From Escherichia coli (GTDB taxonomy: Bacteria; Pseudomonadota; Gammaproteobacteria; Enterobacterales; Enterobacteriaceae), in the NCBI RefSeq assembly GCF_003334255.1, contig NZ_QOWU01000252.1: DNA of 380 bases. One strand, written 5' to 3'. Positions 1-380 of the stretch are shown piece after piece (the stretch's first letter is position 1; each line of letters starts with the position of its first letter). The notes under the pieces are model-generated. The model saw nothing but the letters and a program-made list of their open reading frames with translations. It made no database searches and had not been told where the DNA came from. The translations under genes were made by a program, and so were the position numbers.

Positions 1-7
1 GGTGGTG
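1..7 (+). promoter_or_regulatory. Possible Shine-Dalgarno-like element for L, embedded in the 3' end of the upstream gene
   Basis: The purine-rich GGTGGTG at 1-7 lies about 5-7 nt upstream of ATG 13. It is only a partial match to the AGGAGG consensus. Initiation of L may instead, or additionally, rely on translational coupling through the TGATG stop/start overlap. Confidence 0.3.
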
Positions 8-13
8 AACTGA
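1..13 (+). CDS. M: 3' terminus of upstream CDS, probably phage minor tail protein M (partial; 5' end outside window)
   Basis: In frame 2 (codons 2-4, 5-7, 8-10) the sequence gtg gtg aac reads V-V-N, followed by TGA at 11-13. As I recall it, lambda gpM ends ...EQVVN, and in lambda M lies immediately upstream of L. Only three codons are visible, so the call rests mainly on synteny with the confidently identified L gene downstream. Confidence 0.5.
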
Positions 14-380
14 TGCAGGATATTCACGAAGAAAGTCTGAACGAGTCGGTTAAGTCAGAGCAGTCACCGCGGGTGGTACTCTGGGAAATCGACCTGACGG
101 TGCAGGGCGGTGAGCGGTATTTTTTCTGCAATGAGCTGAATGAAAAAGGGGAGCCGGTGACCTGGCAGGGGCGTGAATATCAGGCGTACCCGATTGAGGG
201 GAGTGGCTTTGAGATGAACGGGAAGGGCAGCAGTGCCAGACCATCGCTGACGGTGTCCAATCTGTTTGGTCTGGTCACCGGGATGGCGGAAGACCTGCAG
301 AGTCTGGTGGGGGCCACGGTGGTCCGCCGCCGGGTGTATGCCCGTTTTCTGGATGCGGTGAATTTCGTTGCGGGCAATCC
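13..380 (+). CDS. L: Phage minor tail protein L, lambda gpL family (tail tip assembly); 5' end complete, 3' end beyond window
   Basis: ATG at 13-15, then an uninterrupted frame-1 reading frame to the window edge. Translation: MQDIHEESLNESVKSEQSPRVVLWEIDLTVQGGERYFFCNELNEKGEPVTWQGREYQAYPIEGSGFEMNGKGSSARPSLTVSNLFGLVTGMAEDLQSLVGATVVRRRVYARFLDAVNFVAGN. This aligns without gaps to the N-terminus of lambda gpL as I recall it (MQDIRQETLNE...VVLWEIDLT..GGERYFFCNE.NEKGEPVTWQGR.YQ.YPI.GSGFE.NGKG...RP.LTVSNL.G.VTGMAEDMQSLVG.TVVRR.VYARFLDAVNFV.GN). The many conservative substitutions indicate a lambdoid homolog, not lambda itself. No in-frame stop occurs in the window. Confidence 0.9.
   Translation, partial: MQDIHEESLNESVKSEQSPRVVLWEIDLTVQGGERYFFCNELNEKGEPVTWQGREYQAYPIEGSGFEMNGKGSSARPSLTVSNLFGLVTGMAEDLQSLVGATVVRRRVYARFLDAVNFVAGN

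Follow-up and report, generated by a model that had tools for sequence, protein, structure and literature searches.

The stretch of E. coli DNA analyzed here (380 nucleotides, hereafter the window) almost certainly comprises the M/L junction together with the first half of gene L from the tail-tip block of a lambda-like siphovirus prophage residing in an E. coli chromosome. What was observed is the identity of the sequence, its membership in the family, the order of the genes and an intact L gene at identical loci, while the role of the protein in the virion is inferred from phage lambda. The gene itself is already known and is annotated in thousands of genome records.

Our analysis revealed a reading frame on the plus strand (frame 1) that opens with the ATG at positions 13-15 and runs past the 3' end of the window. 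Translation of positions 13-378 gives MQDIHEESLNESVKSEQSPRVVLWEIDLTVQGGERYFFCNELNEKGEPVTWQGREYQAYPIEGSGFEMNGKGSSARPSLTVSNLFGLVTGMAEDLQSLVGATVVRRRVYARFLDAVNFVAGN, i.e., 122 codons, which are followed by 2 further bases. By homology to lambda gpL, the feature at 13-380 (plus strand) can be described as a gene L homologue (tail tip / hub protein L) represented by its first 122 codons and 2 nt. Frame 1 is free of stops over the whole window (1-380), whereas frames 2 and 3 contain eight stops each, and it stayed open in only 57 of 20,000 mononucleotide shuffles. An earlier note on this DNA, made from the sequence alone, had reported gpL motifs in the frame-1 translation and had taken the window to encode the N-terminal ~120 residues of a lambda-like gpL. 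All of the quoted motifs were found in the plus-strand frame, each of them at the residue number that it has in lambda gpL: VVLWEIDLT at residue 21 (nt 73-99), GGERYFFCNE at residue 32 (nt 106-135), GEPVTWQGR at residue 46 (nt 148-174), VTGMAEDLQSLVG at residues 88-100 (nt 274-312) and VYARFLDAVNFV at residue 108 (nt 334-369). The second statement was borne out as well, with the 122 residues of the window aligning gap-free to residues 1-122 of lambda gpL.

The database search that had been proposed as a check, i.e., for the phage minor tail protein L family, returned strong matches in every collection concerned. The best solved structure was the lambda 'Tail tip protein L' (PDB 8iyk_L), with residues 1-122 matched on residues 1-122 without gaps (E = 2.2e-63). 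The NCBIfam equivalog model TIGR01600 (phage_tail_L) scored 182.4 bits against a cut-off of 70.75, thus exceeding it by more than 110 bits even though only half of the L protein lies in the window. Pfam PF05100 (Phage_tail_L) was matched with E = 1.2e-42, while PHROG 4199 and PHROG 18, both described as 'minor tail protein', were matched with E = 7.3e-79 and E = 1.4e-77, respectively. The window protein is therefore a member of the gpL family as defined by the TIGR01600 equivalog, and it belongs to a standard lambda-type tail-tip block. The view that this is a well-described system and not a novel one agrees with these results, as the family is known and each of the defining features examined was present.

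In lambda, gpL is the tail hub protein, and cryo-EM has shown that its HDI domain, a beta-sandwich resembling the tail tube, spans residues 1-166 (PMC10721106). A surface-exposed domain made up of residues 154-232 binds a [4Fe-4S] cluster via Cys173, Cys182, Cys205 and Cys212, and the tail tip, once assembled, contains gpL as a trimer (PMC10721106). Since the HDI domain corresponds to lambda residues 1-166, the window encodes about three quarters of it and none of the Fe-S domain. The N-terminal HDI domain of the window protein is colinear with that of lambda gpL at 80% identity, a comparison made at the level of sequence. By analogy with lambda gpL, the encoded protein would serve as the tail 'hub' protein, and its C-terminal domain, which lies outside the window, would bind a [4Fe-4S] cluster via four cysteines. 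Gene L would be expressed from the late operon.

As a lambda reference we used gpL of PDB 8IYK chain L and positions 13429-14127 of J02459. The window shares 97 of its 122 amino acids (80%) and 293 of its 380 nucleotides (77%) with lambda. The nucleotide differences are distributed over codon positions 1, 2 and 3 as 18, 13 and 54, and among the codons that differ from lambda 39 are synonymous and 25 non-synonymous. Because the differences fall mostly at third codon positions and synonymous changes outnumber non-synonymous ones, the substitution pattern indicates that the gene L frame is under purifying selection. The 25 amino acid replacements within 122 residues set the window protein apart from lambda gpL, as does the lack of two cysteines, Cys12 and Cys140, which are not cluster ligands in lambda and are missing from the window type of L. 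On the other hand, the full-length L of loci identical to the window has 232 aa like that of lambda, the gene occupies the same place in the H-M-L-K-I-J block, and the Fe-S cysteines 173, 182, 205 and 212 are kept downstream in these loci.

A second gene overlapping L, or an RNA element hidden in the window, was also considered, given that minus-strand ORFs of 64-65 aa are present at 50-244 and 180-377, a terminator-like match lies at 331-344 and a 10-nt inverted repeat is formed by positions 19-28 and 172-181. We regard this as extremely unlikely, as the minus-strand and frame-2 ORFs are either interrupted by stops or deprived of a start codon in lambda, in phage PhiR5_1 or in both. The shadow ORFs on the minus strand (24-131, 50-244 and 180-377; 35-65 aa) and in frame 2 of the plus strand (266-361) were accordingly rejected as not conserved. 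The terminator candidate was rejected too: it lies within the L frame, its hairpin comprises no more than 5 pairs and is of ordinary stability (z = -0.8), and its occurrence is within the expectation from shuffles, which contain 0.3 such sites on average. The inverted repeat is the only one in the window, its arms are 143 nt apart and it is consistent with chance; no direct repeats were found in the window. In addition, the window gave no Rfam match even at E <= 1 and no promoter-like sites were found in it.

The first bases of the window belong to the preceding gene. Bases 1-12 represent the 3' end of gene M, and not upstream non-coding DNA, so that the feature at 1-13 (plus strand) is the 3' end of a gene M homologue (distal tail protein). 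In frame 2, bases 2-13 read VVN* in the window and in lambda alike, and the TGA stop of M at 11-13 shares its A with the start codon of L, forming a TGATG overlap exactly as in lambda. At the identical locus of strain ATCC 25922 a 109-aa M homologue ends in EFKQVVN* at the same point, and phage records annotate the upstream gene as 'tail tip assembly protein M'. The first 20 nt of the window, GGTGGTGAACTGATGCAGGA, are identical to the M/L junction of lambda, although the window as a whole is only 77% identical to it. The purine-rich GGTGGTGA at positions 1-8 (plus strand), located 5-12 nt upstream of the L start, is likely a Shine-Dalgarno-like ribosome-binding site for L. Together with the TGATG overlap, the conserved GGTGGTGA suggests that L is probably translationally coupled to M.

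According to the earlier note, the locus should belong to a tail-tip block with the gene order H-M-L-K-I-J. The flanks of loci identical to the window confirmed this, as H and M precede L there and K, I and J follow it, and the order H-M-L-K-I-J is common to the annotations of ATCC 25922, strain IAI39, phage PhiR5_1 and lambda. ATCC 25922 carries a 100% identical copy of the window within an apparently complete lambdoid late region, in which lysis genes, terminase, portal, protease, decoration, major capsid, FI and FII are followed by Z-U-V-G-T and then by the tape measure, M, L, K (C40 peptidase), I, J, Lom, tail fibre and fibre assembly genes. This prophage region is flanked by the host genes potB, potA and pepT. 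The K gene of the ATCC 25922 prophage is annotated as a 247-aa C40 peptidase, while in the old lambda record K has 199 aa. Further downstream, the ATCC 25922 prophage differs from lambda in the length of J, which is 1230 aa (L002, 22387-26079) vs. 1132 aa in lambda (L004, 10506-13904), and in the spacer between I and J, which measures 343 nt vs. 60 nt.

This I-J spacer (L002, 22044-22386) is situated about 1.7 kb downstream of the window position and is AT-rich, and the same sequence is found in IAI39 at L003, 14044-14386. Its first ~170 nt are common to phage PhiR5_1, while the remainder is different. On the minus strand it carries a strong promoter-like site (TTCACA-16-TATAAT, 11/12, 22181->22154) and a terminator-like hairpin with a T-run (22075->22059), which together would yield an antisense transcript of the late operon, ~90-100 nt long and with a fold z of -2.1. 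The plus strand has a GC hairpin with T residues after it at ~22255-22290. The spacer matched no Rfam family at threshold, and no known small RNA corresponding to it was found in Rfam or in two papers of the prophage sRNA literature. The spacer may hold an unannotated small-RNA moron. A separate Rfam match, RF02111 (IS009), was found at L002, 30267-30465 with 225 bits, the gathering score being 117. It falls within the 3' portion of the prophage's tail fibre assembly gene and has as neighbours a small 'hypothetical protein' ORF and a SAM-dependent methyltransferase in the opposite orientation.

In ATCC 25922 the tail genes are immediately preceded by those for terminase, portal, protease, decoration and major capsid proteins, which rules out an origin from a tailocin or a gene transfer agent. 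An assignment of gene L to a phage-tail-like bacteriocin (F-type tailocin) had to be weighed, because gpL-type hub proteins are used in tailocins, as is evident from the second-best solved-structure match, the baseplate hub protein of F2 pyocin (25vf_7, E = 1.3e-19). Its probability is negligible in our view. The window protein is much closer to lambda gpL in sequence, lambda-type M, K, I, J, lom and tail fibre genes occur at every locus inspected that has an identical or nearly identical copy of the window, and head genes accompany them in two of the three inspected loci (ATCC 25922 and PhiR5_1), with terminase and portal annotated in ATCC 25922. The F2-pyocin hub (PDB 25vf chain 7) and gp13 of RcGTA do have a homologous N-terminal hub domain, and RcGTA gp13 also contains an Fe-S cluster within an L-K-I-J-like gene arrangement (PMC10721106). 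However, their sequences are far more distant and the elements that carry them are tail-only bacteriocins or gene transfer agents, in contrast to the ATCC 25922 locus, where head and tail genes are both of lambda type.

The state of the element is less certain than the identity of the gene. IAI39 likewise has a copy of the window at 100% identity, but there it lies in a decayed element bordered by mlrA and btsS (L003, 4733-11679). This element has no head genes, and its N-terminally truncated tape measure gene lies next to IS629/IS3 fragments, a group II intron reverse transcriptase (ltrA) and a partial integrase. It is thus possible, though rather improbable, that the window derives from a cryptic, decayed prophage remnant, whose copy of L would be a drifting relic or a retained fragment of the tail module that no longer builds tails. 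Other 100% identical loci, such as that of ATCC 25922, have a complete late region, and even in IAI39 the genes M, L, K, I and J, as well as lom and the fibre gene, are still annotated as intact. In the loci identical to the window (ATCC 25922 and IAI39) L has 232 uninterrupted codons, and the full-length protein keeps Cys173, Cys182, Cys205 and Cys212 in the domain that lies outside the window. A stop or frameshift just downstream, which the earlier note had named as the mark of a non-coding remnant, is therefore absent from loci 100% identical to the window. A decayed state would in any case alter the status of the element only, and not the identity of the sequence. Since identical copies occur in contexts as different as those of ATCC 25922 and IAI39, the 380 bases cannot by themselves distinguish an intact prophage from a remnant or a free phage.

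With regard to IAI39-like strains, it could also be proposed that the M-L-K-I-J-lom-fibre block, including this allele of L, has been domesticated, i.e., kept by selection for a benefit to the host. If this were true, the benefit might lie, e.g., in a particle derived from the tail tip or in a reservoir for recombination with incoming phages. We consider domestication very unlikely; alternatively, the block in such strains may simply be a recent relic.

The distribution of the window was assessed by a megablast search against 5,426 complete E. coli genomes. Matches were obtained in 2,989 of them (~55%). The number of matching places per genome had a median of 2 and a maximum of 13, and among the matches listed O157:H7 and other food- or cattle-derived E. 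coli had 8-10. The matching places were on chromosomes in 8944 of 8968 cases. A copy at an identity of at least 99% is carried by 183 records, many of which are 100% identical over all 380 bases. Among the matches listed, the annotation in E. coli was in all cases 'phage minor tail protein L | phage tail protein'.

Deposited phage genomes contributed 189 matching records, including Stx-converting and other Escherichia phages, and plasmid collections 29. In view of these records, a free (virion-derived) lambdoid phage genome or a phage-plasmid might be the source of the window instead of a chromosomal prophage. We find this unlikely, as the phage records reach 96.3% identity at best, while many chromosomes match at 100%. 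With respect to plasmids, the best record has 99.2% identity, but several of the PLSDB 'plasmid' records with gene L are 0.4-1.4 Mb long (e.g., CP088669.1, CP054248.1 and CP061244.1, at 0.5-1.4 Mb) and resemble pieces of chromosomes. These long records are probably chromosome fragments or misassigned replicons and not true plasmids. The closest phages examined, namely the Stx-converting and other E. coli lambdoid phages vB_EcoS-569R3, Stx1_14040, PhiR5_1 and CP-1639, show 94.7-96.3% nucleotide identity over the 380 bases. They have the same module order, with the genes annotated as tail tip assembly proteins L and M, but they differ from the window by a few percent of the sequence and none of them is identical to it; in PhiR5_1, 4 of the 122 residues of gpL in the window are different. 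The exact matches in E. coli chromosomes support the proposal that the DNA stems from a lambdoid prophage of Enterobacteriaceae.

The significance of the window beyond annotation is little. It is usable as a marker of lambdoid prophage content in E. coli. Furthermore, the many near-identical copies of tail genes are potential substrates for recombination between prophages.
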